DNA of 64,000 bases, from NCBI GenBank assembly GCA_014905635.1, contig CM026547.1, positions 1,612,001 to 1,676,000 of the forward strand. Direction: 5' to 3'. The DNA is from Scenedesmus sp. PABB004. Lineage: Eukaryota. Shown here in pieces: positions 3,958 through 64,000 of the stretch. The notes under the pieces are model-generated. The model did not search any database and was not told where the DNA came from. It saw nothing but the letters and a program-made list of their open reading frames with translations. The position numbers and the translations under genes are program-made. Every line of letters begins with the position of its first letter. Within the stretch, counting starts at the first letter, position 1.

Positions 3958-5869
3958 TCACGCGCGCTGCAGCGCGGCGACCGTCCCGGCGCGCTCGAGC
4001 GTCCACGCCCGCCGCAGCTGGGCCGCGAGCGCGCCGTAGCCGCGCGCCTGGAGCAGCGCGAAGAGCTCCGCGTTGTGGGGCTCGAAGAAGGCCGCCAGGT
4101 CCTGGAACAGCGCGGGCGGCAGCGAGCCGGTCGGGTAGGAGCGCTCGTGGAGCTTCTTGAAGCCGCCGTCGTCGGGCTTGGTCAGCGCGGGGTCCAGGCC
4201 CAGCCAGGCCACCAGCTGCGGCACGGGCGCGGGGGGTCGCGCACGGCGGCTGCCGCCAGCACGTCGCGCGCGCGCGCGCGCGCGGGCGGCGCGCGCGCGC
4301 GCCCCGCGCCGCACCTGCTCCATGTGCTCGCGCGGCCGCTCCTCAAACGCGTTGGACGACTGCGCGGACGGGCGGCCGGAGGGCGGCGGGCGGCGCGCGT
4401 GAGCGCTGCGGCGCGGCACGCGCCCGCGCGGCACCGCTGCGCTGCGGCGCCTCACCCAGAGCAGCAGCTGCTCCGCCGGGAAGTGTGCCAGCCAGCGCGC
4501 CAGGTGCACGGCGTACAGGCCGACGTGTATGTGCAGCACCCTGCAGGCGAAGCAGCGGGGCACGCGGCGCGTGAGCGAGTGAACTCAGCGCGGGGCGCCG
4601 GCGGGCCCGTCCCCGCGAGCGCGCGGCACGGGCTCACCCCTGCAGCGTGCCGGTCGGGCTGAACACGCACTGGTCAACCTGCTCGTGCATCGGCCGCCCC
4701 GGATCGACCTGGGCGAAGCACGCGCGCAGCGTGCGCAGCTGCCTGCGGCGGCAGAGGCGGCAGAGGCGGCGGCGGCGGCGGCGGCGGGGCTCGCGGCGAG
4801 GCCGCGGTGCGGCGCCGCCGGGGGCGCGCGCAGCGGGGCCTGCACACAGCACCCCCCCCCCCCCCCGCGCGCGCGCGCACCCCGTGAGCTCGCGCATGAC
4901 GTAGGCCTGCCACGCGGCGTTGTACTCGGGCGTGCCCTCCACGAGCGCCGCGTGCGCGGGCGCGCGCTGGAAGAGCATGTTGACGCTGCTCAGCGCGCGG
5001 CTCACGGGCTCGCGCAGCAGCGCCACCAGGCGCGCCTGCGGCAGCAGCGCCCTGACGTTGCCCGCCGCGTTGGGGTGGGCGAGGTACATCGCCGTCGCCT
5101 CCATGCGCACGAGGCCGGGGCGGCTCGCCGCCGTGAGCCCCGCCGCGGCGGGCCAGCTGCAGCGCCCCTGGAGCGGGCTGTCGGCGGTCGCGTTGACGCC
5201 CGGGAAGCTGGCAAAGTAGGTGCGCTGCTGCTGCGGGTTGCGCACGTGCGCGGGCTGCTTGTCAAAAAAGTGCAGCTCCTTGGTCACGTGCGCGCCGATG
5301 ATGGCCGGGTGGAACCTGCGACACGATGCGACGGTGGCGGCGGGGGTGCTCCCAGCTGCTGCGTGCGGGCTCTGGCGCAGCTTGCCGCGCGCCGGCTGCG
5401 AGCAGCTGTGCGGTGCCAGCCAGCGCTGGCCGCGGCGCCCGCACCGCGGGGTGAAGTCGACGTGCGACTTGGTGCCGTTGGCGTAGTGCACGGCTGGCTG
5501 TGAGCCGTTGAGGTAGTGGAAGAGCGCCGTGGTGCCGCCCTTCATCACGCCGATGACCAGCAGCTGGGGCACGCACGCGAGCGGGTCGAGCGACGGCGCG
5601 GCGCCGACCAGCGCCGGCGGCAGCCACTCGCCGCCGCCGCCGCCAGCTGCGTCCGGCGTCCCCGGGCCAAGCCGGCGGCCGCCCGCGAGACCCCCGCCGC
5701 TCGCTGGCCAGCGCGCGGGCAGCAGCAGACTGCCGTAGCCCGCCACCAGCAGCGCGCAGGCGATGAGCGCGTTCCGCAGGCGAGGGCTGATCCCCAGAGC
5801 AGCTCGACGCTCCCAGTGTCGCAGGCGAGCGCCCCAGGAGCCCCCGTCCTTGCTGGCCCGCGGCGCCAT
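3958..5869 (-). CDS. Membrane-anchored sulfotransferase, heparan-sulfate 3-O-sulfotransferase-like (multi-exon)
   Basis: N-terminal TM (ALIACALLVAGYGSLLL), 5'-PSB motif PQLLVIGVMKGGTTAL, KELHFFD, EATAMYL, 3'-PB motif LLREPVSRALS, GLYAVHLARWLAHFP, and C-terminal LAAFFEPHNAELFALL. Confidence 0.85.
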
Positions 5870-9147: not shown

Positions 9148-9226
9148 GACGTCGTGGCCGAGCGGTCCAAGGCGCTGGAGTAAGGTTCCAGTCCGAAAGG
9201 GCTTGGATCAAATCCCGTCGACGTCA
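9148..9226 (+). pseudogene. tRNA-Leu(AAG) copy with a damaged T-arm (probable pseudogene)
   Basis: GACGTCGTGGCCGAGCGGTCCAAGGCGCTGGAGTAAGGTTCCAGTCCGAAAGGGCTTGGATCAAATCCCGTCGACGTCA. Acceptor, D and anticodon arms are intact (AAG at 9182-9184). The T-arm reads TTGGATCAAATCCCG versus GCGGGTTCAAATCCCG in the sister copy, so the B-box is broken. Confidence 0.7.
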
Positions 9227-9263
9227 CGATCACAATAACAGCCACCCCGTACGGCGGAGTACG

Positions 9264-9268: not shown

Positions 9269-10934
9269 GTGGGCGCTGGGTGGGTGTGGAGGTGGAGGCG
9301 CTTCACCTGCACGCAGCCGGTGGGCCTGGAGACACGGACCCTGCATTTACACCACGTTACATGCGACACCGGTCGACAGTCGGCCCCGTCGCGCGCCACG
9401 CCCGTGGGGCGGCGGCAGCTCGGTCAACGTGCGGGCGCCGTTGATCTGCGGCAGCCGCGCGCGCCGCGCCCCGCCCTCGCCGCTGCGCCGCGCCGCGCCC
9501 CGCGCCGCGCCGCGTCGGCTCGCCTCCCTTGGGTCGCCTCGCCTCGCCCCCCCCCTCGCGCACGGGGTGCCCGCGGCAACGTGGGCGTTGCCCACGACCA
9601 CGTTGCAGCCGCCGGGGCGCGGGCTCACAAAGAACGCGTGACGACCCTGCCGTGCTGAGGGTTCAGCCGTGCTGGGTGCAAACTGGGTTGGGGCCTGGTG
9701 GGTGGGAGGGAGGGGGCGGGGGGCCGCAGCACGCAGCAAACAGCGCGCGCGCGCGTGCGGCAGTTGCGCAGCGCGCGCCCGCGCACGCGGCCGCTGACCA
9801 GCAGGCCGGAGTCGAGCATGTATGACCTGATGATCAGCGGCCGGGTGCGCGAGCGCGCGCCGCGCATGCGGTGCGCAGCGCCGCAGGCAGGCGGATGTCG
9901 GCCAGCACGCCGTGCAGCCCGCTGCGCCACGCGCCCTGCGCCCACAACGTGGCCGCCCACGCGGCGCGCCGCGCAGGCGGGCAGCCCCCCTCCGCGCACG
10001 TGGTGCGCCTCCGCCGGCGGAGGCGCGGCGGCGCCGCCGCGCTCAGAGCGTCCGCGCCGGCGTCGTCCCGGGCGGCCGCCGTGCAGCATTGATCGCGCCG
10101 CAGACCCGCTAAGTCAAGCACGGTCGACCCCAGCGGCGCCCAGCGCACCAAGCTGCGCCTAGATGACCGGCACGCGCGACGTCATCGTCATCGCGCCGTG
10201 CTGAGCCGCTGACCGACGCGAGGACGCGGGCGGCGGCGCACCCGCGGCTGCTTTCGCGCCTGCGCCTGAACGTCCCGCCCCCGGCACGCGCATCACCTTG
10301 CGGCGCCGCGCGCCCGACGGCGTGCACGGACGACGGCGCGGGTGTGGGTGCGGCGCGGCACGCGGGCAGCGGTGGTGCGGCCCGGGGGGTGAGCCTGGGT
10401 GCGTCGTTTGTGCGCGTCCAGCAGCGCGCGCGCGGGCGGGAAGCGGGCGGTCAGAAACGAGGGCGCGCCCCTGCAAGGCGTGGAGCCGGCGCCCGCGTCG
10501 GCGTCGTGCCGCGCGGCCGGGCACAGCATGACGCGACGTTCGCGAGGGCGGGCGACGCGTTGTCCGGCACGCGCCGCGACGCCGCCGCGCCGCGCGCACC
10601 TGCCGGCCGGTCGGGCGTCGGGCGTCGGGATAGGCCCGACCGGCCAGCAGGGCGTGGACGCGATCGCGGCCGGCCTGGCCGAGCCGCTGCGCGCGACCAC
10701 CCCCGCGGCGCGCAGGGGCCGGCGGTGCTCCCCGCGCTGCGCGGCGCCGACGCCGAGTGCCAGGTGCGGGGGCGTGGGGGCTGGTGGTGTTGTTGCGAGG
10801 CGCGGCGGGGGGAGTGAGGGAGTAGGGGAGCGGCGCGGCGGCGCGGGGCGCAGCGCGCAGCGCGGCGCGGGGCGCGGCGCGGCGGTCAGCAGCGCGGCGC
10901 GGCGCAGCTGCGAGGGCGGGGCAGGGCGGGGCGA

Positions 10935-11293
10935 GCGCGGCGCGCGCGGCTGCCGCAGATCAACGGCGCCCGCACGTTGACCGAGCTGCCGCCGCCCCAC
11001 GGGCGTGGCGCGCGACGGGGCCGACTGTCGACCGGTGTCGCATGTAACGTGGTGTAAATGCAGGGTCCGTGTCTCCAGGCCCACCGGCTGCGTGCAGGTG
11101 AAGCGCCTCCACCTCCACACCCACCCAGCGCCCACAAAAACGTACTCCGCCGTACGGGGTGGCTGTTATTGTGGTTTTAGATTGAATGACGTCGACGGGA
11201 TTTGAACCCGCGCCCTTTCGGACTGGAACCTTACTCCAGCGCCTTGGACCGCTCGGCCACGACGTCTTCCCGTCTGTGCGGCTGATGGTGAGC
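10935..11293 (-). repeat. Right arm of the inverted duplication (partner 9127-9469)
   Basis: Reverse-complement match to the left arm, with small indels immediately 5' and 3' of the tRNA. Confidence 0.93.
11187..11266 (-). tRNA. trnL-AAG: tRNA-Leu(AAG)
   Basis: Reverse complement GACGTCGTGGCCGAGCGGTCCAAGGCGCTGGAGTAAGGTTCCAGTCCGAAAGGGCGCGGGTTCAAATCCCGTCGACGTCA. It has a perfect 7-bp acceptor stem, anticodon stem CTGGA/TCCAG with AAG, a class II variable arm, a GGTTCAAATCC B-box, discriminator A, and an AT-rich TATA-like 5' flank (11307-11317). Confidence 0.92.
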
Positions 11294-17713: not shown

Positions 17714-20700
17714 TCAGGCCATGACCTCCTTGGCGGCCTTGACCACGTTGTCGACGGTGATGCCAAACTTGGCGTACAGGATGTCGGCGGGCGCGGACGC
17801 GCCAAAGTCGTCGATGCCCACAAACTTGCCGCTGCTCGTGGTGTAGCGCTCCCAGCCAAAGCTGCTGCCCGCCTCGACCGCGACGCGCGCGGTCACGGCC
17901 TTGGGCAGCACGCTCTCCTTGTACTCGGCGCTCTGCTCGGCAAACAGCTCCCAGCAGGGCATGGACACCACGCGCACCTGCGGCGGCGGCCGGGCGGCGC
18001 GTGAGCGCGGCGCGCTGGTGCGGCGGGCGCCGGGCAGCGGGCGCCACGCGGCCCGCGCCCCCGCGCCGCCCCAGCCCGCGCGCGCCGCCCCGCGCCCCGC
18101 GCCGCCCCAGCCCGCGCCGCCCCAGCCCGCGCCGCGCGGCGCACCTTCTTGCCGTCGGCCTCGAGCTTCTTGGCCGCCTCGACGGCCATGGGCAGCTCGC
18201 TGCCGGTGCCGATGAGGATGACGTCGGGCGTGGCGTCGCCGCCGTGGATGACGTACGCGCCCTTCTCGGTGCCCTCCACGCTGCAGCCGGGCAGGTTGGG
18301 CATGCCCTGGCGCGAGAGCGCGATGGTCGTCGGGCGCTTGCGGTTGCCGACCGCGACCTTGTACGCGCCCGCGGTCTCGTTGCCGCCGCACGGGCGCATC
18401 ATGAGCATGTTGGGCATCGCGCGGAAGCTCGCGAGGTGCTCGATCGGCTGGTGCGTCGGGCCGTCCTCGCCGAGGCCGATGGAGTCGTGCGTCATCACGT
18501 ACAGCACGCCGACCTGCGCCCCGGCGCGGCGGCGGGCAGCACGCGGTCAGCGCGCGGCGCGGCGGCAGAGCGGGCCGCGCGGCGCGCGCGCGTGCGCGGC
18601 GGCAGGGCAGGCCACGCGGCGCGCGCGCGCGTGCGCGGCGCGGGGGCGGGCCGTCACCTCGCTGAGCGCGCTCATGCGCATGGCGGAGCGCATGTAGTCG
18701 GTGAAGATGTAGAACGTCGCGCAGTAGGGGATGAGCCCGCTGTTGTGCAGCGCGACGCCGTTGACGATCGCGCCCATCGCGTGCTCGCGCACGCCAAAGC
18801 TGCGCGGCGGGGCCGGGGCGGCGCGGGCGGCGTGGTGAGGGCGCGCGAAAGGCCTCGCAGCCCCAGCCGCCGCCGCCGCCCCAGCCCGCCGCCGCGCCGC
18901 GCCCGCCGCCGGCCCAGCCCGCTGCCGCGGCGCGCGCGCGGGCGCACCGCATGTTGCGCTCGGCGTAGCTGCCCTTCTGGAAGTCGCCAAACATCTTCAT
19001 CAGCGTGAGGTTGGAGGGCGCGAGGTCGGCGCTGCCGCCGATGAGGCCGGGCAGCACGGGCGCGAGCGCGTTGAGCATGATCTGGCTGTACTGCCGCGTC
19101 GCGAGGCCCTTGTCCTCGGGCGTGTAGCTCGGCAGCGCCTTCTCCCAGCCCGCGGGCAGCTTGCCGCTGCGCAGGGGGCGCGCGCGCGAGACAGGGGCGG
19201 GGTCAGCGGGGGCGCGCGAGGGCGCGAGGGCGGCAGCGCGCGCGGCGCGGCCGGGCGGCGCGGCCGGGCGGCGCGGCCGGGCGGCGCGGCCGGCGCGCGC
19301 GGCCGCCGTGCGCGCACCTGAGCAGGCCCTCCAGCTCCTCCGCCTCCTTGGGGTGCTTGGCCTTGTACGAGGCCATCGCGGCCTTCCACTCCTCCTCGGC
19401 CGCCGCGCCCTTGGTGACGGCGGAGCGCATGACGTCGTAGACCTCCTGGGGCACCTCAAACTCGCCGTACGGCCACTTGAGGTTCTCGCGCGTCGCCGCC
19501 GTCTCCTCGGGGCCCAGGGGCGCGCCGTGCACGTCGTGCGTGTCGGCCTTGTTGGGCGAGCCGTAGCCGATGAGGGTCGAGACCTTGATCAGGCTGGGCT
19601 TGTCGGTCACCGCCTTGGCGTTGGCGATGGCCTGCGCGCACGGGCGGCGGCGCGGCGGGGGCGCGCGTCGGCGGCGGCGCGGGCCAGCGGCGCGCGCACC
19701 CGCGCTGCCGCTGCTGCTGCGGCTCCGCGGCGCCGCGCCGCGTGCGGCGGGCGGCGGCGCTGGGCGGCGCTGGGCGCCGCGCGCGCGCGCGCGCCTTGCG
19801 CAGGCCGTCAAAGTCGGTGTTGCCGTCCTTGACGTGCTGCACGTGCCAGCCGAGCGCCTCGAAGCGCGCCGACACGTCCTCGGTGAAGCTGATCTCGGTG
19901 TGGCCGTCGATGGAGATGTTGTTGTCGTCGTACAGCGCGATGAGCTTGCCCAGGCCCCAGTGGCCCGCGAGGGAGCAGGCCTCGTTGGAGATGCCCTCCA
20001 TCATGCAGCCGTCGCCGAGGATGCAGTAGCTGCGCGGCGCGCGGGCGGGCGCGTGGGCGGGCGGGCGTGTGGGCGGGCGCGCGGGCGCGCGCGGCGCGCG
20101 CGGGCGGCAGGCGGCGCGGGCTGGCGGGGCGCTCAGGCGTGCGCGCGCGGGGCGCTGCCGCTGCCGCTGCCGCTGCCGCTGCCGCTGCCGCTGCCGCTGC
20201 CGCTGCCGCTGCCGCTGCCGCTGCCGCTGCCGCTGCCGCTGCCGCTGCCGCTGCCGCTGCCGCTGCCGCTGCCGCTGCCGCTGCCGCTGCTCCCCCCCTG
20301 CACGCGCCGCTGGCAGCCCCCCTGGCGCCGCAGCGCGCGCGCCCGCGACGGCCGCCGCGCCGGCCCCCGCCCACCCCCGTGGCGGCGCTCACGTGTAGTG
20401 GTCCACCACCTTGGCGTCCGGCTTGTTGAAGCGCGCCGCCAGGTGCGCCTCAGCGGCGGCGAGGCCGACGGCGTTGCAGATGCCCTGGCCGAGCGGGCCT
20501 GCGGCGCGGCGCGGCGCGCGCAGCGCGGCGGTCGGCGCGGCGGCGCGGCGGCGCGGCGGCGCGGCGGCGCGGCGGCGCGGCGGCGCGGCCGCCCCCCGCC
20601 GGCCGGCGCGCGGGGCGCGCAGGCGGTGCGCTCGTGGGGCCGTGCGCGCGGGCCCGGCGGCGGCTGCGGCGCGCACCGGTCGTGACCTCCACGCCGGTGG

Positions 20701-41369: not shown

Positions 41370-42070
41370 ATGGCCCGCCTCGCCGTGGTCGCCCTGGCCC
41401 TCTTCGGCCTCCTGGCCGTCGCCAGCGCAGCAGGTGAGGGCCTCTCCTGCGTCGCGCGCGCCGCGCGCTGCGCGCATCGCCGCGTTCCGCCAGCCCGCGC
41501 GCCAGCGCCCGGGGACTGCGCGGGCTGCGCCCGCGCGGGATGCTTGTGCGCAACACATCGATCTGGGCTGGCACCCGACAGTTGCCCGCGCTGCCGAGCG
41601 CGGGCAACTGCCGAGCGCCGCGACGCCCTTGGCGCCGCCTGACTGCCGCCGCCTGGCCGCCTGCGGCCGCCCGGCTTGACCCTCTGCCTGCCCCCGCCCT
41701 GCCCGCCGCGCCACGCCACGCAGACTCGCAAACCTCGCGCAAGATGCTGGGCTGGGACTGGCCGACCGCCCGCGTGACCACCCCCATCGGCAAGGTCAAC
41801 GTGCGCCCGTACAGCTGGAACGTGCAGAACCTGGTCGGCGGCAACCTCCTGTTCCCCAACTGGTGGGTGTCCGGCTTCCCCGAGGCCACCGGTGGCAGCC
41901 GCCGCCTCCAGGGCTGGGACTGGCCGACCGCCCGCGTGACCACCCCCATCGGCAAGGTCAACGTGCGCCCGTACAGCTGGAACGTGCAGAACCTGGTCGG
42001 CGGCAACCTCCTGGTCCCCAACTGGTGGGTGTCCGGCTTCCCGGAGGCCACCGGCGGCTCCAAGCACTAA
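41370..42070 (+). CDS. Secreted repeat-peptide precursor A (136 aa): signal peptide plus two Trp-rich 50-aa cores
   Basis: Exon 1 41370-41433 encodes MARLAVVALALFGLLAVASAA, intron 41434-41723 is GT..AG, and exon 2 encodes DSQTSRKML-[GWDWPTARVTTPIGKVNVRPYSWNVQNLVGGNLLFPNWWVSGFPEATGGS]-RRLQ-[same core, F>V]-KH*. The unit is 162 bp. TGTAA lies at 42136-42140. Confidence 0.88.
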
Positions 42071-44151: not shown

Positions 44152-46203
44152 ATGAAGACGTCAAAGGTCATCGCGGCCCTGCTCATCGCCGGCCTGGCTG
44201 TGTCCGCGGCTGCCTCGCACGGTGGGTGGCGCCGCCGCGGCAGGGCGGCCGGGCGCCCCGCAACCAGCCAGCGCGCGCCGCGAGCCGCGAGCGCCGGTGG
44301 GGGCCGGGGGCGGCAGGAGAGTCGCAGGCGCGGTTCAGCTGAACGATAGCAGCTCGGGCAGCGCAGGGCGCGTGCGTTGCGGTGGCAGACCAGCACGCTG
44401 GCCGTGGGCGCGCGGCGCACAGCGAGCGCCACCGCTCCACCGCCGCCAGTTCTGGTGAAACTCCGACTCACATTCCCCTGCCGCCCTGCTGCCTGCCCCT
44501 GCTGCTTGCCCCCGCTTGCAGGCCGTGAGCTGAGCCAGGCCGCTGCTGCGAAGGACGCCAAGGCCGCCGACGCCAAGGCCGCCGACGCCGCGGAGGAGGC
44601 GCCCGCCAACCCCTACGGCGACGGCCTGCCGACCGTGACCGTGTCTGGCCCCTCGAGTATCCCCAGCTTTGCCGCCCCCACCTTCAAGTACGCGTACAAG
44701 GACGGCGTGGGCGCGTTCCAGGCCTGGAACGGTGGCATCGAGCTCCCCAAGGTCATCGACCTCGGCGGCGTGCGCGTGACCCGCCCCGGCCTGCGCGGCC
44801 GCCGCCTGAGCCAGGCTGCTGCGGCTGCCAAGGACGCCAAGGCCGCTGACGCCAAGGCCGCTGACGCCGAGGAGGAGGCGCCCGCCAACCCCTACGGCGA
44901 TGGCCTGCCGACCGTGACCGTGTCCGGCCCCTCGAGCATCCCCAGCTTTGCCGCCCCCACCTTCAAGTACGCGTACAAGGACGGCGTGGGCGCGTTCCAG
45001 GCCTGGAACGGCGGCATCGAGCTCCCCAAGGTCATCGACCTCGGCGGCGTGCGCGTGACCCGCCCCGGCCTGCGCGGCCGCCGCCTGAGCCAGGCTGCTG
45101 CGGCTGCCAAGGACGCCAAGGCCGCTGACGCCAAGGCCGCTGACGCCGAGGAGGAGGCGCCCGCCAACCCCTACGGCGATGGCCTGCCGACCGTGACCGT
45201 GTCCGGCCCCTCGAGCATCCCCAGCTTTGCCGCCCCCACCTTCAAGTACGCGTACAAGGACGGCGTGGGCGCGTTCCAGGCCTGGAACGGCGGCATCGAG
45301 CTCCCCAAGGTCATCGACCTCGGCGGCGTGCGCGTGACCCGCCCCGGCCTGCGCGGCCGCCGCCTGAGCCAGGCTGCTGCGGCTGCCAAGGACGCCAAGG
45401 CCGCTGACGCCAAGGCCGCTGACGCCGAGGAGGAGGCGCCCGCCAACCCCTACGGCGATGGCCTGCCGACCGTGACCGTGTCCGGCCCCTCGAGCATCCC
45501 CAGCTTTGCCGCCCCCACCTTCAAGTACGCGTACAAGGACGGCGTGGGCGCGTTCCAGGCCTGGAACGGCGGCATCGAGCTCCCCAAGGTCATCGACCTC
45601 GGCGGCGTGCGCGTGACCCGCCCCGGCCTGCGCGGCCGCCGCCTGAGCCAGGCTGCTGCGGCTGCCAAGGACGCCAAGGCCGCTGACGCCAAGGCCGCTG
45701 ACGCCGAGGAGGAGGCGCCCGCCAACCCCTACGGCGATGGCCTGCCGACCGTGACCGTGTCCGGCCCCTCGAGCATCCCCAGCTTTGCCGCCCCCACCTT
45801 CAAGTACGCGTACAAGGACGGCGTGGGCGCGTTCCAGGCCTGGAACGGCGGCATCGAGCTCCCCAAGGTCATCGACCTCGGCGGCGTGCGCGTGACCCGC
45901 CCCGGCCTGCGCGGCCGCCGCCTGAGCCAGGCTGCTGCGGCTGCCAAGGACGCCAAGGCCGCTGACGCCAAGGCCGCTGACGCCGAGGAGGAGGCGCCCG
46001 CCAACCCCTACGGCGATGGCCTGCCGACCGTGACCGTGTCCGGCCCCTCGAGCATCCCCAGCTTTGCCGCCCCCACCTTCAAGTACGCGTACAAGGACGG
46101 CGTGGGCGCGTTCCAGGCCTGGAACGGCGGCATCGAGCTCCCCAAGGTCATCGACCTCGGCGGCGTGCGCGTGACCCGCCCCGGCCTGCGCGGCAAGCAC
46201 TAG
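44152..46203 (+). CDS. Secreted repeat-peptide precursor B (583 aa): signal peptide plus six ~93-aa units
   Basis: Exon 1 44152-44221 encodes MKTSKVIAALLIAGLAVSAAASH, intron 44222-44521, and exon 2 begins GRELSQ followed by units RRLSQAAAAAKDAKAADAKAADAEEEAPANPYGDGLPTVTVSGPSSIPSFAAPTFKYAYKDGVGAFQAWNGGIELPKVIDLGGVRVTRPGLRG. It ends GKH*. Third positions are strongly C/G-biased. Confidence 0.9.
44524..46194 (+). repeat. Coding tandem array, six units of 279 bp (first unit one codon shorter)
   Basis: Antisense ORFs recur at 44613, 44892, 45171, 45450, 45729 and 46008 (period 279). Confidence 0.97.
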
Positions 46204-54129: not shown

Positions 54130-57100
54130 TCACGCCTCGGCGCAGGGCTGCGCGGGCACGCCGCGCCAGACCGTGCCGGGCGGCACGACCTCGCCCTTCA
54201 TCACAAGGCTCACGTCGCCCACGACCGCGCCGTTGCTGATGGTGACGCCCGGCAGCACGCACGACCCGCACCCGATCGTGCACCGGCTGCCGATCACCAC
54301 GTCTGTGCGGCGGGTGGTGGCGTGTGCGCGTGAGCGTGCGGCGCGGCGCGTCTGCAGCGCGCCGCGGCCGTCGCGTGCGCGCGCACGCGCTGGCTGGCGC
54401 GGCGCGGCTGCCGGTCGCACCGTGGAACTTGAGGCGCCGGTTTTCGACGGTGTGTGCCATGACAAAGGTCATCTCGTCCACCACGCTGCCGTCGCCGATG
54501 GTGATGCAGTCGGGCTCTTGGCTGTGTGTGGGTGTGCGTGGGTGGGAGGGGGAGGGGGCTTGAGGGGCAAGCTCCAGCGGTGCGCGGCGCAGCGCGAGCG
54601 TGGCGCGAGAGCACGCGCGGTGCGGCGGCGCGCGCGCCTGTGCAGGCCGAGGAGCAGCACGTTGGCGCCGATGCGCGCGCCCATCGCGCGGTAGTACCAC
54701 ACGGCGAGCTGGCTGCCGCTCAGCGCGCGCAGCAGGCCGGCCTGCGGCGCGGCACGGTGGGCCGCGCGGGCGGGCGGTGGGCCGCCGCGGTCGTGCCGCC
54801 GCGAGCTGAGGGCCGTGCGAGCGGCCCAACGAAAACAGGACCCCTTGAGCAGCGGGGGCGCGGCTGCAGGCCAAGCCCAACAGCGAGAGGCCGCGGTCGC
54901 GCGGCCGCCCCAACAGCGAGAGGCCTCGCGGCGCGCCTGGTGGAAGTAGAGGAGGATGCCGGTGATCATCCAGGCCGTGTGCCCGCCGCTGTAAAACGGG
55001 TGCTCGCCCGCGCAGCGCGGCAGCAGCACGCTGCGGCGGCGGCGGCGCGGCGCGGCGCGCGCGGGGCGTGTGGGCGCGCGGAGCGTGGGGCGCGGCGCGC
55101 GCAGGGCGTGTGGGCGCGCGGGCGTGGGGCGCGGCGGCGGCGCAGCGCGCCCTCACCGCTTGACCAGGGCGAGCCAGGCGACCGCGAGCACGACGCCCAG
55201 CGCGTACGTGAGCGGCGCGGCGAGGAGGCCCGGCAGCAGGCCGGCGCTGAAGAGCAGGACCGCTGCGGAGGGGCGCGCGGCGCGGTGGCGTGTGCGGCGG
55301 GGCGCGCGTGGGCGCGGCGCGGGGCGCGCATGCGGGCGGCGGTGGTTGCCGCGCGCGCCCCGGGGGCGCGGCCGCGCACAGCTGAGCGCGGCGGCGGTGG
55401 CGGGCGCTCACCGCTGGCGGCGTAGAAGGGCGTGACGAGCAGCTCGCCGCTGAGCGGCACGAGCAGCAGCATGCCGGCGACGTACGTCGCGTTGAACGAC
55501 GCGTAGTGCCGCCACCCCACGCGCCGCGCGTCGGCGGGCTCGGGCGGCGCGCCGGGCGGGCGCGGCGCGCCGGGCGGCGGCTCTGCGCGGCCGGGGCGCA
55601 GCGTGAGCGGGCCCTGCGTGACGCTGTCGCGCGCGTACGTGCTGCCCGCGGCGGCGTAAGTGAAGACGCCAAGCACGGCGCCGGGCTGCACCGTGACGCC
55701 GGGGTAGAGCTGGCGCGGCGCGGCGGCGGGGCGGAGGTGGGGTTCAGCGGCGCCGAGGGCGTTCAGCAGCGCGTGGGGGCGCGGCGGCGCCGATGGCGGC
55801 GGCAGCGGCGACGACAGCGCGCACCGCGGTCTGGTTGGTGACGTCGCAGCCGGCGCGGATGCTGATCGGCGCCGCGCCGAGCGCAGCCGACGGCATCAGC
55901 GTCACGCCGCTGCCGCGACAGAGGGGCGGGGGGCAGGCGGGCGCGCGGCGCGGTCAGCGGGGGCGCGGCGCGCGCGCGCCCGCGCGCGAGCTGGGCGGGC
56001 CGTGCCGCAGCGGCGTGCGGGCGCCGCGCCGCGCCTGCAGACCGACACGCAGTCGCCGACGTCGAGCAGATCGTGCTGGTGCAGCGTGAGGTCCTGGGGG
56101 CGGCGGAGGGTTGACTGGCTCAGCAGCAGGGCGGCAGCGGCAGAGCCGCCGCCTCGCTCGCTGGCCGCGCGCCACGCCGCCTCACCTCGCCGATCCAGGC
56201 CTGGCGGCCGACGCGCGCGCCGAGGCCGCGCAGCCAGGCGTTGAAGAGCGCCGTGCCGCTCCACATGAACGCGCCCGCGCGCACCGCCGGGTGCTCGAGC
56301 AGGCAGCGCAGCACGTGCGTGCGGAAGCGGGCGCCCCAGGTCGGCGGGCGCGGCGCGCCGCCCGCGAGGCCGACGCCGCGCACGCGGCCGAGCAGCAGCC
56401 ACTTGTACGGCACCGCCAGCAGCACGAGCGCCTGGCCTGCGGGCGCGCGCGCGCGGACGGCCGCGTCGGCCGGGCGGGCCGGCGGCGCAGCGTGCGCATG
56501 CCCCCGCGACCCCGAGCCCGCCCCGCGGCGCAGGTGTGGGTGTCGTCACCCACCGAGCATGAAGGAGACCATTGGGAAGAGCAGCATGGCCTTCACGCTG
56601 GACAGCATGAGCCCGTGGCACACCGCCACCTGCGGTGCGGGCTGCGGCGTGCCGGGCCAGCGCAGCCAGCAGGCGAGCGAGTCGGCGGCGAGGCGGGTGA
56701 TGTCAGAGCGGCTGTAACCGGCCAGCCAGAGCCAGAAGGTGACGAAGCCGTCTGTGGGGTGGTCGGGTGGCGCGACGCGGCGCGGGCGGGCGGGGGCGGG
56801 CAGGGGGCGGTCAGCGCAGGAGGCGGCGCAGCGCAGGGCGCAGGCGCGCGCGCACATGAGGCGGGCGCGCTGACGGCGCTCATGAGCAGGGAGGTCAGCG
56901 GCAGCGCCAGCAGCGCCGCGCCGACGCCGAGCGGGCGGTCGACCGTGCGCACGGCCGCGAGCGCGGCGGGGCCGACTTGGCCGACCCGGACGAGGGGTTG
57001 GTCGTCGCGGAGCACGGCTCGACGACGGTGCCTGGCGGCACAGCCGAGCTGACCACCATCGCGTGCGGGCCGACGACCGCGCCGGCGCCGACGCTCGCGG

Positions 57101-60100
57101 GCGCGAGGTGCATCGTGCCGAGCGCCGCGGCGCCGCCGCCGTCGTCGTCGCCGGCCGCCGCGGCAAAGGTGACGGCGGTGACGCCACTGCTCGCGTCGAG
57201 GCAGGCGCCGTCGCCGAGGGAGATGAGGTCGAAGCCCTGCAGGTCGTTGGTGTCGATGACGACGCCCGACCCCACGCGCACGCCGAGCGCGCGGTACCAC
57301 CAGCACAGCAGCTCGGTGCGGCGGATGGCGGGCAGGAAGCTGGCTCGCGCGCCCTGCGGGGGGGGGGGGGGGGGCGCGGCGCGCGGCGCGGTGCGCAGCG
57401 CGCGTCAGCGAGGCGGCGGGAGCGGGGCGGCGCAGGCGGGGCGGCGCGCGCGGCGGGGGCGGCGGCAGCTCACGAGCGTGAGGACGTTGACGAGCCAGTG
57501 CCGCAGGAAGGCGCCGCCCCAGAGCGGCGCGGTGCCGGCCCTGTACCGCCCCACGAGCAGCCACTTGCCGCCGATGGTCCACGCCGCAAACAGCGCCATG
57601 CTCGCGAGGTCAAACGCGGGCAGCAGCGCGAGCGCGGCCCAGCCGAGCCGCGCCGTTGCGGCAAAAAAGCCGACAAACGGCGCCGCCGTGGTCACGGCCG
57701 ACAGGCCGCCCAGCAGCACGAGCGCCGCGACCTGCATGGCCGTGGCCCAGGCGACCGAGGGCGCCGCCGCGCCGGCGCCGCGCGGCGGCGGCGCGGCGCC
57801 GTCCTGCTTGGCGCCGCCGCCGCGGCCGCCGCCAGCCGCCGCGGCGGCCTTGCCGGGGCCGGGCAGCAGCCCGCCGCGCGCGCCGCCGCCGGGCGCGCCG
57901 GGCGCGACCCCGGCGCCTGCGCCGCGCAGCGCCGAGGCGGCCGCGGGGTCGGCGCCACCGCTGGCAAAGGGGCTGGAGAAGCCCGGCAGCTGCGGCGCGG
58001 CAGCGTCGAGCGCCGCCACGCCGGGCGGGCCGAGGAAGAGCCGCGCGTGCGGCAGGGCCTCGCCGCGCGAGGAGACCTCGCCGCTGGCGCTCGACGCGGC
58101 GCTCGCGGCGGGCGCGTGCGCCGCGCCGCCGGCGCCCTTGGCAAACGCCGCAAACGCCGCGCCCGCCGCGGCAAAGGCGGCCTGGTAGGCCGCGACCGCC
58201 GCGTGCGTGGGCGGCGCGCCGGTCGCGCGCGGGCCGGCGCCGCGCAGCGCGTCGTCGCCGTCGGCCCGCGCGGCGGGCGTGCCGCCGCCGAGCGCGGCCG
58301 AGACGGCCGCCGCGACGTTGGCCGCCACGCTCGCGGCGGCGGCCGAGAAGCCGTCCGTGAGGCTGCTGCCGCCGCTGGGCGCGACGGACCACGCCGAAAT
58401 GCTGCCGCCGGCGGACGGCAGCTCCCAGGCCGACGCGCTGACGCTGGAGCCGGCCCCGAGCGGCGCCTGCAGGCTGCCCGCGCTGCCGGCCCGGATGAAG
58501 CTGCCGGCGCAGCTGGGCACCGCAAAGCTGCCGGCGCCGCTGGGGCCGAAGGGGAGCGGCCCCAGGACCGACTCCTTGGAGGCCAGCGCCTTGGGCGGCG
58601 CGCCGCCGGCGGCGGCCACCGCGGCGGCAAAGGCCGCCAGCGTCGGCGCCGAGTAGATGAGCAGGCCGCTCATGGCCGGCAGCGCCAGGCCCGCGCGCAG
58701 CTGGCTGTTGACGCGGCCGGCAATCAGGCTGTTGCCGCCGAGGGCGAAAAAGTCTGACTCGGGCCCCAGCGCGCCGACCTCGACGCCCAGCGCCTCGGCC
58801 CAGGCGGCCGCGACGAGGGCCTGCAGCCGGTCGGTCGCGCATGCCGCCCCCAGGGGCTTGGCGCCGGCCAGCGCCGCTGGCGGGGACGCCGGCGGGTGCG
58901 CCTCGGCGGGGCTGGTGATGCTGGAGCTGCTGCCCGAGCGCGCGCTGAGCGCCGAGCCGCCGGCGGCGGCCACCGCGGCGGCAAAGGCTGCCAGCGTCGG
59001 CGCAGAGTAGATGAGCAGGCCGCTCATGGCTGGCAGCGCCAGGCCCGCGCGCAGCTGGCTGTTGACGCGGCCGGCAATCAGGCTGTTGCCGCCGAGGGCA
59101 AAAAAGTCTGACTCAGGCCCCAGCGCGCCGACCTCGACGCCCAGCGCCTCGGCCCAGGCGGCCGCGACGAAGGCCTGCAGCGGGTCGGCCACGCACGCCG
59201 GCGCCAGGGGCTCGGGCGAGGGGCTGCTGCCCTGGCTGCTGGCCTCCTCGCCCGCCGGCGCCGCCACGGCAGGCAGCGCGCGGCCGGCGGCGCGGCCGCC
59301 GGCGGGCCCAGCCGGCGCCGGCGCCGGCGCGGCGGCGGGTCGCGGCGGGCGCACGCCGTCGCGCGCAAAGTCGGGCGGCGGGAGCGCCTTTCGGTTGACC
59401 TTCTCGCTGGGGAGCAGGGGCAGCGCGTCGAGCAGGACCACCGCAGTGGGTATCATGTAGTCTGGCAGCGCGCCCGCGAGGCCGGCGACGAGGCCGCCGC
59501 GGTCGAGCGCCGCGGGGCTGACCCACGCGGCGAGCTGGTCCTGCCCGGTCGTGGGGTTGGCCGCGAGCGCGCACGCGACCTGCGCCACGCCCGGGAGCGC
59601 GCCCAGCACCGCCTCGACCTCCTGCGGCGGGGGCCGCCGCGGAGCGGGCGGGGGGTCGGGCCGGGCGCGCGCCGCGCGCGCGCGCGCCGTTGCGAGCTGC
59701 CGCACGCTGCCACGGGGCTGCCGCGGGGCTGCGCGCTGCCGCGCCGCGCGCCGCACGCCGCGCCGCGTCGCTGGCGCACCTGGAGCTCGATGCGCAGGCC
59801 GCGCAGCTTGACCTGGTGGTCGACGCGGCCGAGGAACTCGAGCACGCCGTCGCCGCCGGGCAGCCAGCGCACGGCGTCGCCGGTGCGGTACATGACGTGC
59901 GTGTGGCTGGCGGGGCCCTCCGCGAAGGGGTTGGGCACAAAGGTGGTCGCGTTGAGCTCGGGGCGCTTGAGGTAGCCGCCCGCGACGCTGACGCCGCTGA
60001 TGAAGAGCTGCCCGGGCACGCCGCGCGGCACCGGACGCAGCGACGCGTCGAGCACGTAGAGGCGCGCGTTGTGGATGGGCCGGCCGATGGGGATGGTCGC

Positions 60101-62958
60101 CGGCGCCTCGCGCGGCGCGCCGGGCGGCGGCGGCGTGTAGAGCCAGCTGGTGATGCCTGCGCGGCGCGGCACGCGCGCGCGCCCGGGCGGCAGGGCAGGG
60201 CGGCGGCGGGAGAGTCGGTCGGCGGCGAGGCGCGGCGCGGCGTGGCCGCGCGCGCGCGCGCATGCACACCCGCCGCGCGCGCCGCGGCGGCCGCGGCGGC
60301 CGCGCACCCACGGACGTCTCGGTGGGGCCGTAGGTGTTGTACAGCTCGGTGAACGGCAGCGCGGCGGTGATGTCGGCGGCCATGGTGCTGGTGAGCGCCT
60401 CGCCGCCCGACAGCACGCACCGCAGCGACGCGCACGGCGCGGCGCGCGCGGCGGCGGCGGGCGCGCCGTGCAGCGCGAGAACCTCGCGCGCGAGCGCGTG
60501 CAGCTGGCTGGGCACCGCGGAGGCGACCGTGACGCCGTGGGCCGAGACGAGCGACATCACGCTGTGCACGTCGCGGTGCGCCTCGGGCGGCGCCACCACG
60601 AGCGCCGCGCCCGCGGTCAGGGCCGTCCAGATCTCGTCCACGCTCGCGTCAAAGTTGGTGGGCGTCTTCTGCGCGGCGGCGGCGCGGGGCGCGCGGCGCG
60701 GCGGCCGTGGTGGGCGCGCGGCCGGCGGCGGTGCGCCCCGCGCGCGCCCCGCGCGCGCGCGCGCGCGCCTGGCGAGCACCGCGGCCCCACCCGCTCGCCG
60801 CGCGCCCGCACCTGGATGAAGACGTCGGCGGGGGTGATGCGGAAGTGCGAGCGGAACCAGGCCGTGTAGGCTGACACGCCTGCGCGGCGGCGGCGCGGCG
60901 GCGGCGGCGCGGCGGGGGCTTGAGCGGCGGCGGCGGCGGCGGCGGCGGCAGGACGGCGCCAGTGCGGGCGCGCGGGCGCGCGGGCGCGGCGCACCCTTGT
61001 GCTTGACCAGCACGCCCTTGGGCTGCCCACTGCTGCCAGAGGTGTAGATGATGTAGCAGCAGCCCTCGGGCGCGCCCAGCACGCCCAGGTCCCAGGTGCC
61101 GGGCTGCGCGCCCGCCGCGCCGAGGCAGGCCGGCGGCAGCGCCGCGGCCGGCAGGGCCGCGGGCGCGGCGGCCGCGCCCGGCGGCGGCGCGGGCGGCACT
61201 GGCGCCGCGTCGGGGTGCAGCAGCAGCGTGTGCACGCCCGCGGCCGCGAGGTCGGGCGGCAGCTTGTGCACCAGGTCGGGCTGCACCAGCACCGCCTGCG
61301 CGCGGCGCGGCGCGGCGCGGCGCGGCGCGGCGCGGCGCGGCGCGGCACGCGCGGCGGGGCGGGACGGGGCGGGGCGGTGAGGGAGGTGTGCGGAGGGCCC
61401 GGCGGCGCGCGGCGCGCGGCGCATGGGACGCCGCGTGTGCGCCGTGGCGCGCCTGTGCGTCGGCGTCGCTGAGCATGAAGGCGATGCGCGCCCCGGGGTG
61501 GTGGTGGTCCAGGGGGAGGTACGCCGCGCCCGCGCGCAGCACGCCCAGCAGGGCGGGCACCATGACGGGGCTGCGCAGCAGCAGCACGCCCACGACGGCG
61601 CCCGGGCGCACGCCGGCGGCGGCGCGCAGGTGCCGCGCGACGCGGTTGGCCGCGGCGTCGACCTGGCGGCGCGGCGGCGGCGGCGCGCGCGCGCGCGGCG
61701 CGGCGCACGGGTGAGCGGGCGCGCGCCGCGGCGCCGGCGGCGCGGCGCGTGCCGCAGGCCCGCGGCGCTGCGCCCCCACCCCACCTCGGCGAACGAGAAC
61801 GACGCGCCGCCAAACACCACGCACGGCGCGCCCGGCGTCGCGGCCGCGCGCGCGGCGACGCGCGCGTGCGTGAGCGAGGCATCGTAGGGCACGTCGGTGG
61901 CGGTGAACGTGCGCAGCAGCAGCGCGCGCTCCTCGTCGTCCATCAGCGCGGCCGACAGCAGGGGCCCGCCGTGCACGGCGTCGGCCACGAAGACCTGCGC
62001 GGCGCGGCGGGCGGCGGGCGGCGGGCGGCCGGCGGTGGTGCTCAGGGGCGCGCGTGGCGATGCGCGCGCGCAGCACGCAGAGCGCGCGCGCGCGCGCCTC
62101 GAAGTGCCGCGCGAGCAGCGCCGCGCCGGCGTCGGTGAAGAGCGCGGTGTTGAACAGCAGGCACGCGCGCAGTGCCGCCGGCGGCGCGCCGCGCGGCGCG
62201 GGGCTGAGCAGCAGGGCGACGTCGAGCGCCGCGGCGGCGGCCGCCGCGGCGGCGCCGTCGGCGCCCCACGCCACGCCCGCCTGGAAGAGCGGGTGGGCCA
62301 TGGAGCTCTCGGGCGACAGGCCCGCGGCGGCGCAGATGTCTGCCACGCTCATGCGCGCGTGCGGCGCCACGGCGAGCAGGCGCGCGTGCAGCGCGTGCGC
62401 GTGGCCGGCGAGCGCGTCGCCGCCGCCCAGCGGCGGGCAGCACAGCGGCACGAGCGGCTCGTCGCCGCCGGCCGCGAGCAGCGCGGCCGCGCGGGGCATG
62501 AGCAGCGCTGAGGGCTGCGCGCCGAGCGTGATGACCTCTTGGCCGCTCACGCGCACCAGGTAGGCCTGCGCGTGAGCGCGCGCGCGTGCGGGAGGGGGAG
62601 AGGAAGGCGGGCGGGGCGGGCGGCGCGTGGGCGAGAGAGAACGAGGGAGCGAGCGCCGCGCGGGCGCGGGCCGCGTGCGCGCACGTGAAACGCCGCCAGC
62701 AGCGCGACGCCCGCGGTCGTGCCGGCGGCGTCGGGCAGATCCAGCCAGAGCGCGTCGGGCAGGCGGCCCAGCGCGACGCGGCCGCGGCGCGCGGTGAGCG
62801 AGGCCTGCGTGCGCGCCTGCGGGGCAGCGTGGTCAATGCGCGCGCGCTGTGCGGTGCCGCGGCGCCGCCCCCGCCCGGCGGTGCCGCCGCCGCACCTTAT
62901 CGAGCACGAGGTCGAGCGCCTGGGGCGCGCCCGCGAGGTGCTCCTCCCAGAACACCAT
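54130..62958 (-). CDS. NRPS-like synthetase: partial condensation domain - adenylation - 2x carrier (T) - Pls-type membrane terminal domain (multi-exon)
   Basis: C-half: FWEEHLAGAPQALDL, HPLFQ, FNTALF. A domain: YIIYTSGSSGQPKGV, FDASVDEIW, SGGEAL, NTYGPTE, GQLFISG..GYL, MYRTGD, GRVDHQVKLRGLRIEL|EVE, LPDYMIP, EKVNRKALP. T x2: DFFALGGNSL. Terminal repeats: KWLLVGRY..WYRALGVRVG..DLISLGDG; KWLLLGR..SGTALFNAWLRGLGARVG; YYRAMGARIG..EPDCITIGD..AHTVENR..VMKGE..WRGVPA. Confidence 0.9.
58603..59181 (-). repeat. Recently duplicated carrier-protein (T) domain, two ~225-bp copies 354 bp apart
   Basis: 58603-58827 and 58957-59181 encode nearly identical LQA.VAAAWAEALGVEVGALGPESDFFALGGNSLIAGRVNSQLRAGL..PTLAAFAAAV. 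Confidence 0.93.
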
Positions 62959-63223: not shown

Positions 63224-63230
63224 CTTTATA
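63224..63230 (-). promoter_or_regulatory. Putative TATA box of the NRPS-like gene
   Basis: TATAAAG on the minus strand, about 270 bp upstream of the ATG at 62958, in very GC-rich context. Confidence 0.55.
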
Positions 63231-63358: not shown

Positions 63359-64000
63359 TCACTCGCCCTCGCGCCAGCCCACGGCGGCGGCGGTCGCCGC
63401 CCACAGGTCCGCCGCGAGCCGCTCGTCCAGCGCGAGCCGCTGGGCGCGGCGTGGCGCGGCGCGGCGAGGCAGCAGCACGCCAGGTCAGGTCGCACGCGGG
63501 GCGGCGCCAGCTGCGGCGCCTGCTGCCGCCGCCTGCTCGCACCCCGCCGCAGCGCGCGCCCGCCGCGCGGCGCACCGGCGGCGCCATGGGCTTGCAGTCG
63601 TGCAGCATCAGCGGCACGGGCGCGTCGGGGCTGAGCTCGGGGCTCGTGGCCGCCCACACCACCACCTGTGCGCCCTGCGCCGGCGTCCTGCCGAGCACCG
63701 GCGCGATGGCCTGAAACAGCCACGCGAACAACGGCGGCACCGACCTGCGGCGAGGCGCGCGAGCGAGGCGCTCGCACCCGCCGCGGGCGGCGGCGACGCG
63801 CGGCGCGGCCGTGCGGCGCGCGGCCGTGCGGCGCGGCGGGCGCGCCTGAAGATGGTGGTGTTGACAAAGCCGGGGCTGCAGCTCGTGGCGATGATGCCGC
63901 GGCCCGCGAGCCGCCGCTGCAGCTCCGCAGAAAACAGCACGTTGGCGAGCTTGGAGTCCGCATACGGCGCGGACCACCAGCGACCCCCCCGCACGCGGCT
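63359..64000 (-). CDS. Short-chain dehydrogenase/reductase (retinol-dehydrogenase-like), 3' exons only
   Basis: Catalytic YADSKLANVLFSAELQRRL, SPGFVNTTIFR, TPAQGAQVVVWAATSPEL, LDERLAADLWAAT..GE*. Confidence 0.88.

Follow-up and report, generated by a model that had tools for sequence, protein, structure and literature searches.

A predicted synthetase gene of a divergent Pls-type branch, with a half-condensation lobe and tandem carrier domains, in the green alga Scenedesmus sp. PABB004

The closest described systems to the gene reported here are the polymer-forming synthetases Pls of Streptomyces and PosA of Acinetobacter baumannii, the latter a synthetase that makes delta-poly-L-ornithine (PMC10522769; PDB 8G95-8G98). 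Pls joins an adenylation (A) and a thiolation (T) domain to a three-repeat terminal domain with six membrane helices and has no thioesterase; PosA follows the same overall plan, with a predicted triple beta-helix on helix pairs. We analysed a window of 64,000 nucleotides from Scenedesmus sp. PABB004 (assembly GCA_014905635.1, contig CM026547.1, positions 1,612,001 to 1,676,000 of the forward strand; coordinates below are counted within it), which carries on its minus strand, at 62958-54130, an intron-rich gene of this plan. By architecture and substrate pocket, the predicted protein is an enzyme that would work like Pls and PosA. Genes of the Pls type have been recorded before from eukaryotes, algae included. 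What appears to be new is the arrangement of a half condensation (C) domain, an A domain and two T domains on a divergent eukaryotic terminal domain, in a lineage that has been tabulated once but not recognised.

The preliminary description of this stretch held such enzymes to be known mainly from bacteria and some fungi, which understates the record. Homologues of Pls are reported from Amoebozoa, Metazoa and Alveolata (PMC10522769), a fungal Pls has been shown (PMC7179176), and a survey of 212 algal genomes holds nine NAPAA clusters, from Nannochloropsis/Microchloropsis, Hydrurus and Vitrella (PMC10794256). All nine are stramenopile or Vitrella clusters and none is green algal; they are given in the supplement, and the term NAPAA does not occur in the main text. 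Like the gene described here, they lie in algal nuclear DNA and match AMP-bind, PP-bind and TIGR02353, but they passed the detection rule, whereas the branch of our gene scores low. The rows of the same survey include a Picochlorum nonribosomal peptide synthetase (NRPS) of 7.7 kb with the order A-T-C-A-T, for which they name no terminal domain (PMC10794256). The Chlorella protein CvaNRPS1 was tabulated in 2015 as an A-T-C-A-T-(LpxA-like) NRPS, an entry that draws no link to Pls. Compared by description only, it resembles our gene as a green-algal NRPS ending in beta-helix repeats, and its domain order is that of P0261, a homologue in the terminal-domain branch of our gene; it differs in that our half-C-A-T-T gene has no first module and only the non-catalytic half of a C domain. 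Products are known for hardly any algal NRPS (PMC4661987). Our literature search found no Pls-type synthetase described in green algae, although the homologue table of the PosA paper, which lay outside that search, may hold such an entry. The polymalate synthetase of Aureobasidium melanogenum is also an NRPS-like membrane enzyme, and acyl-CoA-ligase-type members fall in the same broad branch as our gene, which has an amino-acid A domain rather than a loader of that type.

The gene model was built by hand from the sequence, with exons joined by coordinates, and has 21 exons and 20 introns encoding about 2,101 residues (one of them an X at a frame break discussed below). The ATG start codon lies at 62958 and the stop at 54130, and the exons run on the minus strand at 62958-62896, 62816-62685, 62565-62098, 61994-61785 and 61662-61453 (exons 1-5), 61295-60995, 60879-60812, 60668-60308, 60156-59780 and 59621-57474 (6-10), 57353-56856, 56751-56554, 56436-56186, 56093-56035 and 55909-55825 (11-15), and 55709-55412, 55262-55157, 55030-54937, 54741-54638, 54521-54421 and 54302-54130 (16-21). 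Introns measure 79-195 nt, all 20 end in CAG, and their donors are GT in 15 and GC in five (introns 3, 5, 14, 18 and 19); the splice junctions are gap-free in alignment with homologues. A putative promoter element, a TATA-like box (TATAAA, 63225-63230, minus strand), and a probable intron of the 5' untranslated region (63098-62970, minus strand) precede the start codon, and the sequence holds no ATG between the box and 62958. The GC content at third codon positions (GC3) is 0.96 all along the coding sequence.

Family scans were run on 21 in-frame pieces, exon 14 (19 residues) being too short to scan, and the predicted domain order is half-C, A, T, T, linker and three membrane/beta-helix repeats. 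The overall Pls-type plan of the preliminary description stands. Its plain A-T-terminal order does not: a half-C lobe lies in front, the T domain is duplicated and a long linker follows, all of which were overlooked, as was the frame break in exon 11. The A and T domains it had named were recovered as PF00501 in exons 5, 6, 8 and 9 and, within exon 10, as PF13193 and PF00550. None of the 21 pieces matched a thioesterase or reductase, and the stop comes after repeat 3. Since exon 10 is one frame of 716 codons that holds the C-terminal subdomain of the A domain, both T domains and TIGR02353 positions 1-89, the A-T half and the terminal half belong to one transcript, and not to two as the preliminary description had allowed.

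The Pls-type terminal domain (residues ~1358-2101; 54130-57740, minus strand) comprises three repeats of a helix pair and a left-handed beta-helix. Of the 12 pieces scanned beginning with exon 10, five match TIGR02353 (E 9.5e-10, 4.7e-9, 4.5e-5, 9.8e-5 and 3.9e-15); three of these five match no other family, the last exon ranks it first, and chance falls far short of explaining the matches. The terminal region lies on the profile on which the earlier reading had staked itself. The hydrophobic segments reported there resolve into three pairs in a hydropathy scan, and the Pls/PosA trait of three repeats on six membrane helices is present when the frame is read through the exon 11 break. The repeat motif KWLL.GR is found as claimed in repeats 1 and 2, but repeat 3 reads KRVLLPR; the protein ends as had been stated, in VMKGEVVPPGTVWRGVPAQPCAEA followed by the stop. 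Of the 53 columns that at least 80% of 104 other terminal domains conserve, 46 are kept in the model, E2013, D2015, H2034 and E2037 among them; the columns stand in for the residues that Kito et al. (2013) report as essential for polymerisation. His2034 (54452-54454, minus strand; in AHTVE, QxHLFE in core members) is conserved in 96% of the 104, and we take it to be a candidate catalytic base by analogy with beta-helix acyltransferases. For the Symbiodinium homologue P0344, which falls in the same branch (30-sequence alignment), the predicted fold shows three helix-pair/beta-helix repeats at a predicted local distance difference test (pLDDT) score of 84, its best PDB fold matches are beta-helix acetyltransferases, and it agrees with the PosA model of PMC10522769. 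Searches for a solved Pls-type terminal domain gave none by sequence (one 99-residue piece; best 60 of 110 matches) or by fold, and the fold model of exon 11 itself was weak (pLDDT 61), with no fold match at E<=0.001.

The T domain with a carrier serine, a further Pls/PosA trait, occurs twice, both copies reading GGNSL and matching PF00550: T domain 1 with Ser910 (58956-59181, minus strand) and T domain 2 with Ser1028 (58602-58827, minus strand). They form a 226-nt duplication with six nucleotide differences, five of which are synonymous, and an assembly artefact was rejected on that ground. An Ala/Gly/Ser/Pro linker of low complexity follows within exon 10 (~265 residues; 57777-58574, minus strand); its GC pattern over codon positions is coding-like, with GC3 of 0.93-1.0.

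The A domain (residues ~262-815, exons 4-10; 59367-61874, minus strand), identified from family matches and motifs, is of the amino-acid type. Its core motifs are intact, exons 5, 6, 8 and 9 each have TIGR01733 as their best-ranked family, and in all A exons the NRPS A families score above the acyl-CoA ligases, which sets it apart from P0389 and from a loader of the polymalate-synthetase type. With a reading scheme under which PosA yields its published code, DMEHNGTVSK, the pocket is DADSLGTVGK, with the Asp that binds the alpha-amine (Asp235) kept. The pocket of Pls (7WEW) is DAESIGTVV plus the conserved Lys (DAESIGTVVK); seven of ten positions are identical, and from Pls to the model E is replaced by D, I by L and V by G. 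The code differs from that of PosA, and PosA-type codes occur in the core clade. On these residues, a basic side chain would be the best substrate reading of the pocket. The cationic polymer suggested in the preliminary description keeps this support, a basic monomer being plausible from the pocket. The terminal domain alone is not evidence of a cationic product, because the same branch carries acyl-CoA-ligase-type loaders.

In front of the A domain lies the C-terminal lobe of a condensation domain (residues 1 to ~257; 61887-62958, minus strand). Residues 1-300 match canonical NRPS in blastp (E 4e-25), and the first ESM Atlas match of the lobe (0.96) belongs to a cluster annotated as Condensation in 54% of its members. 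In 38 of 40 canonical C domains, the catalytic motif HHxxxD stands 52-65 residues upstream of the counterpart of residue 1 of the model. It is not found in the model, which is therefore no canonical elongating module of the C-A-T kind; the lobe is predicted to be non-catalytic, and in having no functional canonical C domain the gene resembles Pls and PosA. The truncation is real, because a short-chain dehydrogenase gene, whose 3' end lies upstream (63359-64000, minus strand), stops at 63359, the TATA-like box sits at 63230 and no ATG precedes the start. A hidden N-terminal lobe was ruled out on the same grounds, as there is no room for it past the dehydrogenase stop. Weaker C remnants, each scoring above 20 shuffles, were found in 11 of 13 homologue N-termini tested, core bacterial members included; the dead relic is therefore not unique to this gene.

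We read the gene as encoding a single-module, membrane-anchored, NRPS-like synthetase of the Pls/PosA kind that sits in a divergent eukaryotic branch and builds a polymer from a basic diamino acid, and we regard this as evenly poised between right and wrong. The A domain would adenylate a basic diamino acid of the lysine or ornithine type with ATP, and either T domain would receive the residue on its phosphopantetheine arm, which a phosphopantetheinyl transferase (PPTase) encoded elsewhere would have attached. The three beta-helices may form a pseudo-trimeric acyltransferase on the six-helix membrane anchor, which would move the residue from its thioester onto the side-chain amine of the growing chain, His2034 being the candidate base. 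The product would be a cationic isopeptide oligomer, freed without a thioesterase. The half-C lobe is probably a non-catalytic relic of an A-T-C-A-T-terminal ancestor that lost its first module; a two-module form supporting such an ancestor is present in the branch (P0261) and is listed for Chlorella variabilis. The second T domain may be a recent duplication that adds carrier capacity.

Several observations weigh against this reading. At pocket position 239 the model has Asp where PosA needs Glu, the equivalent Glu221 being essential in PosA and called well conserved in the family (PMC10522769), and the exact code DADSLGTVGK occurs in none of 60 other Pls-type A domains. In a tree of 40 of the 121 A domains, 17 core Pls A domains form a clade (100/99) that excludes the A domain of the model, although under an approximately unbiased (AU) test this domain could still be sister to that clade (p 0.25) or group with the homologues P0261/P0285 (p 0.45), neither placement being rejected. 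The terminal domain too lies outside the core Pls/PosA clade, seven of its 53 conserved columns are changed, and the loaders of its branch vary, with an acyl-CoA-ligase type (P0389), a fused dehydrogenase dependent on flavin mononucleotide (FMN; P0295) and a reductase (P0281), so that product chemistry differs among its members. No PPTase was found in the 26 of 106 candidate coding segments of the window that were scanned. Compared with Streptomyces Pls, the algal gene thus differs in its half-C lobe, tandem T domains, long linker and Asp for Glu, in the placement of its A and terminal domains outside the core clade, and in an estimated TIGR02353 score below the cut-off. An A domain clearly swapped in from a canonical NRPS was also considered, and the AU tests weaken that proposal.

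The curated score belongs with these points. The TIGR02353 cut-off is 423 bits; a surrogate hidden Markov model (HMM) built from 77 core members, which stands in for the real profile, gives the spliced model 307, against 317 for P0359 (195.5 on TIGR02353), 278 for P0389 (168) and 868 for the core member P0252 (611), from which a TIGR02353 score of ~190 is estimated indirectly for the model. Four members of its branch score 168-196 bits. Given this indirect estimate and the clade tests, the gene is not to be filed under the curated family, and its divergent branch appears, from these sequence scores, to be missed by standard gene-cluster scans.

The phylogeny with Pls homologues that the preliminary description called for places both the A and the terminal domain outside the core clade. 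The terminal-domain tree (IQ-TREE on 41 of 105 domains; long branches, no mixture model, midpoint root, groups given their names once the FastTree run was done) sets a core Pls/PosA side (100/97) apart from a 16-row set that contains the model (97/93). Among the 15 members that share this branch with the model, five are named, two chytrids and three dinoflagellates. A sister position of the terminal domain with P0261/P0285 has support of 0.918 in FastTree and is an open fork in IQ-TREE, among sequences that do not include CvaNRPS1. The neighbouring group holds P0337, a protein from a Pseudomonadota metagenome-assembled genome with the order A-T-C-A-T-terminal. P0261 and P0337 each have a full-length C domain and are candidates for copolymer or dipeptide-unit synthesis, their pocket pairs being DVHHCMGVV/DPADLGTVV and DAFWIGATF/DAQNIGVID. 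Other terminal domains are fused to an FMN-dependent dehydrogenase (P0295 and P0353), an NAD-binding reductase (chytrid P0281), a PPTase (P0272), acyl-CoA dehydrogenases (P0372) or a flavin amine oxidase (P0334). The cluster of P0354, in the branch of acyl-CoA-ligase-type members, has 93 members including a Tara Oceans entry and is apparently an abundant marine form.

Closer relatives came from exon 11. With its first 124 residues as the HMMER query against 1.84 billion representatives, 239 matches were obtained at E<=0.001, 150 of them listed. Eleven short open reading frames in the top 20 (P0244-P0251, P0253, P0256 and P0263) and the cluster member P0394 are 39-52% identical to the frame-restored exon, and all 12 resemble lone exons predicted on contigs rich in introns. 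In six of the 12, a Gln stands directly before the start of the model exon, consistent with an in-frame CAG acceptor; five start at an internal Met or later, and one differs. At the phase-1 donor, 10 of 12 have a residue of the kind that an N|GT codon demands (Gly, Arg or Cys), and the remaining two run into sequence matching exon 12. Because these junction residues fit, the splice model of exon 11 is supported and vertical inheritance among intron-rich organisms is indicated; because the 12 mostly share the exon 11 intron positions, the gene represents a conserved lineage and not a lone recent transfer. This appears to be an algal lineage, in which we infer the exon 11 relatives to be green algal. 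Two metagenome scans and one viral scan gave no confirmed match to loci of the algal-type relatives, and a plasmid search gave no match. The word-indexed protein searches found no close full-length relative (best 120 of 432; best 120 of 300): the best 120 of 432 matches were dominated by generic NRPS, another search gave three weak bacterial Pls-type matches, and in the canonical NRPS search all of the best 120 of 300 carried PF00668 and none Hexapep, with scores inflated by multi-module proteins.

The rival that survives best concerns this copy of the gene. Exon 11 contains a one-base frame break, for which a GG/CCCC run at 56968-56973 (minus strand) is the simplest site within a homology bracket of ~56965-56995. 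One base is missing there, because all 12 exon 11 relatives continue in the post-break frame downstream; a cryptic intron bypassing the break was rejected, since the relatives are colinear there. The break may be real, in which case this copy would be a very recent pseudogene or null allele whose protein is truncated after the first repeat, a claim at the level of the allele that we consider a live possibility with less than even prospects. As assembled, the frame ends at ~codon 1599, the relatives have no intron that could skip the break, and nine nearby transketolase exons, read by eye, are free of such errors; the first and last of these also count against a working synthetase here. The N-terminal truncation and the long linker could likewise mean relaxed constraint. 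Against a null allele, the break is the lone lesion in 6.3 kb of coding sequence, the ends of all 20 introns are canonical, GC3 is uniform throughout, and the differences between the T copies are mostly synonymous. The break also falls at a homopolymer run, and such runs are the usual site of long-read errors. We consider an assembly error the probable explanation, by a fair but not decisive measure, over a true lesion.

The enzyme might transfer rather than polymerise. As a membrane aminoacyl transferase with unchanged loading steps, it would place one basic amino acid (a dipeptide in the two-module relatives) onto a lipid, wall glycan, amino sugar or polyamine and so change surface charge. 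The nearest solved fold relatives are single-transfer beta-helix O/N-acyltransferases, loading modules have been swapped many times in the branch, and the two-module order A-T-C-A-T of P0261 and P0337 is ill-suited to a simple homopolymer. To our knowledge, no homopolyamide is known from a green alga. On the other side, a diamino-acid pocket brings its own acceptor amine, and the fungal polymalate synthetase is a polymerase with the same kind of terminal domain. The characterised triple-domain enzymes, as described in PMC10522769, PMC8506220 and PMC4668381, are polymerases as well, and we think single transfer unlikely.

A polymerase for another monomer, be it arginine-like, some hydroxy amino acid or else a modified diamine, would yield an undescribed polyamide or polyester and is unlikely in our judgement. 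Asp239 and Gly331 enlarge the pocket, and a Bdellovibrionales homologue with a deviant pocket code favours Arg (PMC10522769). The A domain is nearer overall to the canonical Ser/Gly type (best 42%) than to the Pls type (best 38%, rank 77 of 592), a ranking biased by how the sets were gathered, since similarity to this A domain defined the canonical set and the terminal domain defined the Pls set. The nearest A domains overall carry, for the most part, Ser-type codes (DVWH...), and the code of the model does not resemble these. Set against a different monomer, besides this bias, are the seven of ten pocket residues shared with Pls, and the polymerisation of a basic diamino acid remains our preferred reading.

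Bacterial contamination or a recent, unameliorated bacterial transfer has a negligible chance of being true: the best named matches of the A region are bacterial, but the 20 spliceosomal introns and a correlation of relative synonymous codon usage (RSCU) of 0.993 with four host genes refute it, and the eukaryotic housekeeping neighbours and the intron positions common to relatives also speak against it. The earlier claim of a resident nuclear gene with many introns, including GC-AG ones, is borne out by the same counts, while the horizontal transfer suggested with it stays a conjecture and, if any occurred, would be old. Neighbours in the window, whose GC content is ~79%, encode Xrn, Rpn6, PP2C and transketolase, and a biosynthetic cluster was rejected on this account within the segments scanned. 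The nearby transketolase gene has introns of the same style as the synthetase, including a GC donor, and a TGTAA signal; the best PDB matches of one of its exons are 5ND5/5ND6 (200 bits), presumably the Chlamydomonas enzyme, ahead of 1ITZ and 8CI0 (178 bits), which together with the intron style indicates a chlorophyte host.

Other features of the window were noted in passing. The short-chain dehydrogenase gene shares the strand of the synthetase and ends ~130 nt ahead of the synthetase's TATA-like box, and a transketolase intron (~20150-20290) contains a long (GGCAGC)n microsatellite. An open frame at 44449-46167 (plus strand) includes six tandem copies of 279 bp with 99% identity (44530-46194); it has low-complexity Pfam matches only and possibly encodes a repetitive surface or wall protein. 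A second tandem duplication (162 bp, 97%; 41749-42058) lies in a Trp-rich frame, GWDWPTARVTTP..., with no Pfam match. Two tRNA-Leu(AAG) genes face each other ~2 kb apart (9148-9227, plus strand; 11187-11266, minus strand), and TGTAA sites mirrored at 9347/9357 and 11043/11053 suggest an inverted duplication. An exon at 4886-5629 (minus strand) belongs to a sulfotransferase family (PF13469, E 4e-10).

The lineage of this gene may extend beyond Scenedesmus. Tentatively, and with the doubt such a proposal deserves, green algae may keep a vertically inherited, divergent Pls-type family that is invisible to the TIGR02353/NAPAA rule and makes cationic isopeptide polymers, in the form of alternating copolymers in the two-module relatives. 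None of the nine NAPAA calls is green algal, yet exon 11 relatives are not rare, which points to a blind spot. The comparison ties the LpxA-like-tailed green-algal NRPS to the polylysine/polyornithine design and offers a cheap test, a ladder of +128 or +114 Da. If the reading is right, the green lineage would here have its first homopolyamide pathway, for instance for an antimicrobial or surface-charge polymer, and algae would be a possible natural source or host of cationic biopolymers. Such a pathway would also join a loading module derived from canonical NRPS to a polymerase domain common to chytrids and dinoflagellates, and the module swaps within the branch would show the range over which the beta-helix terminal domain has been re-used.

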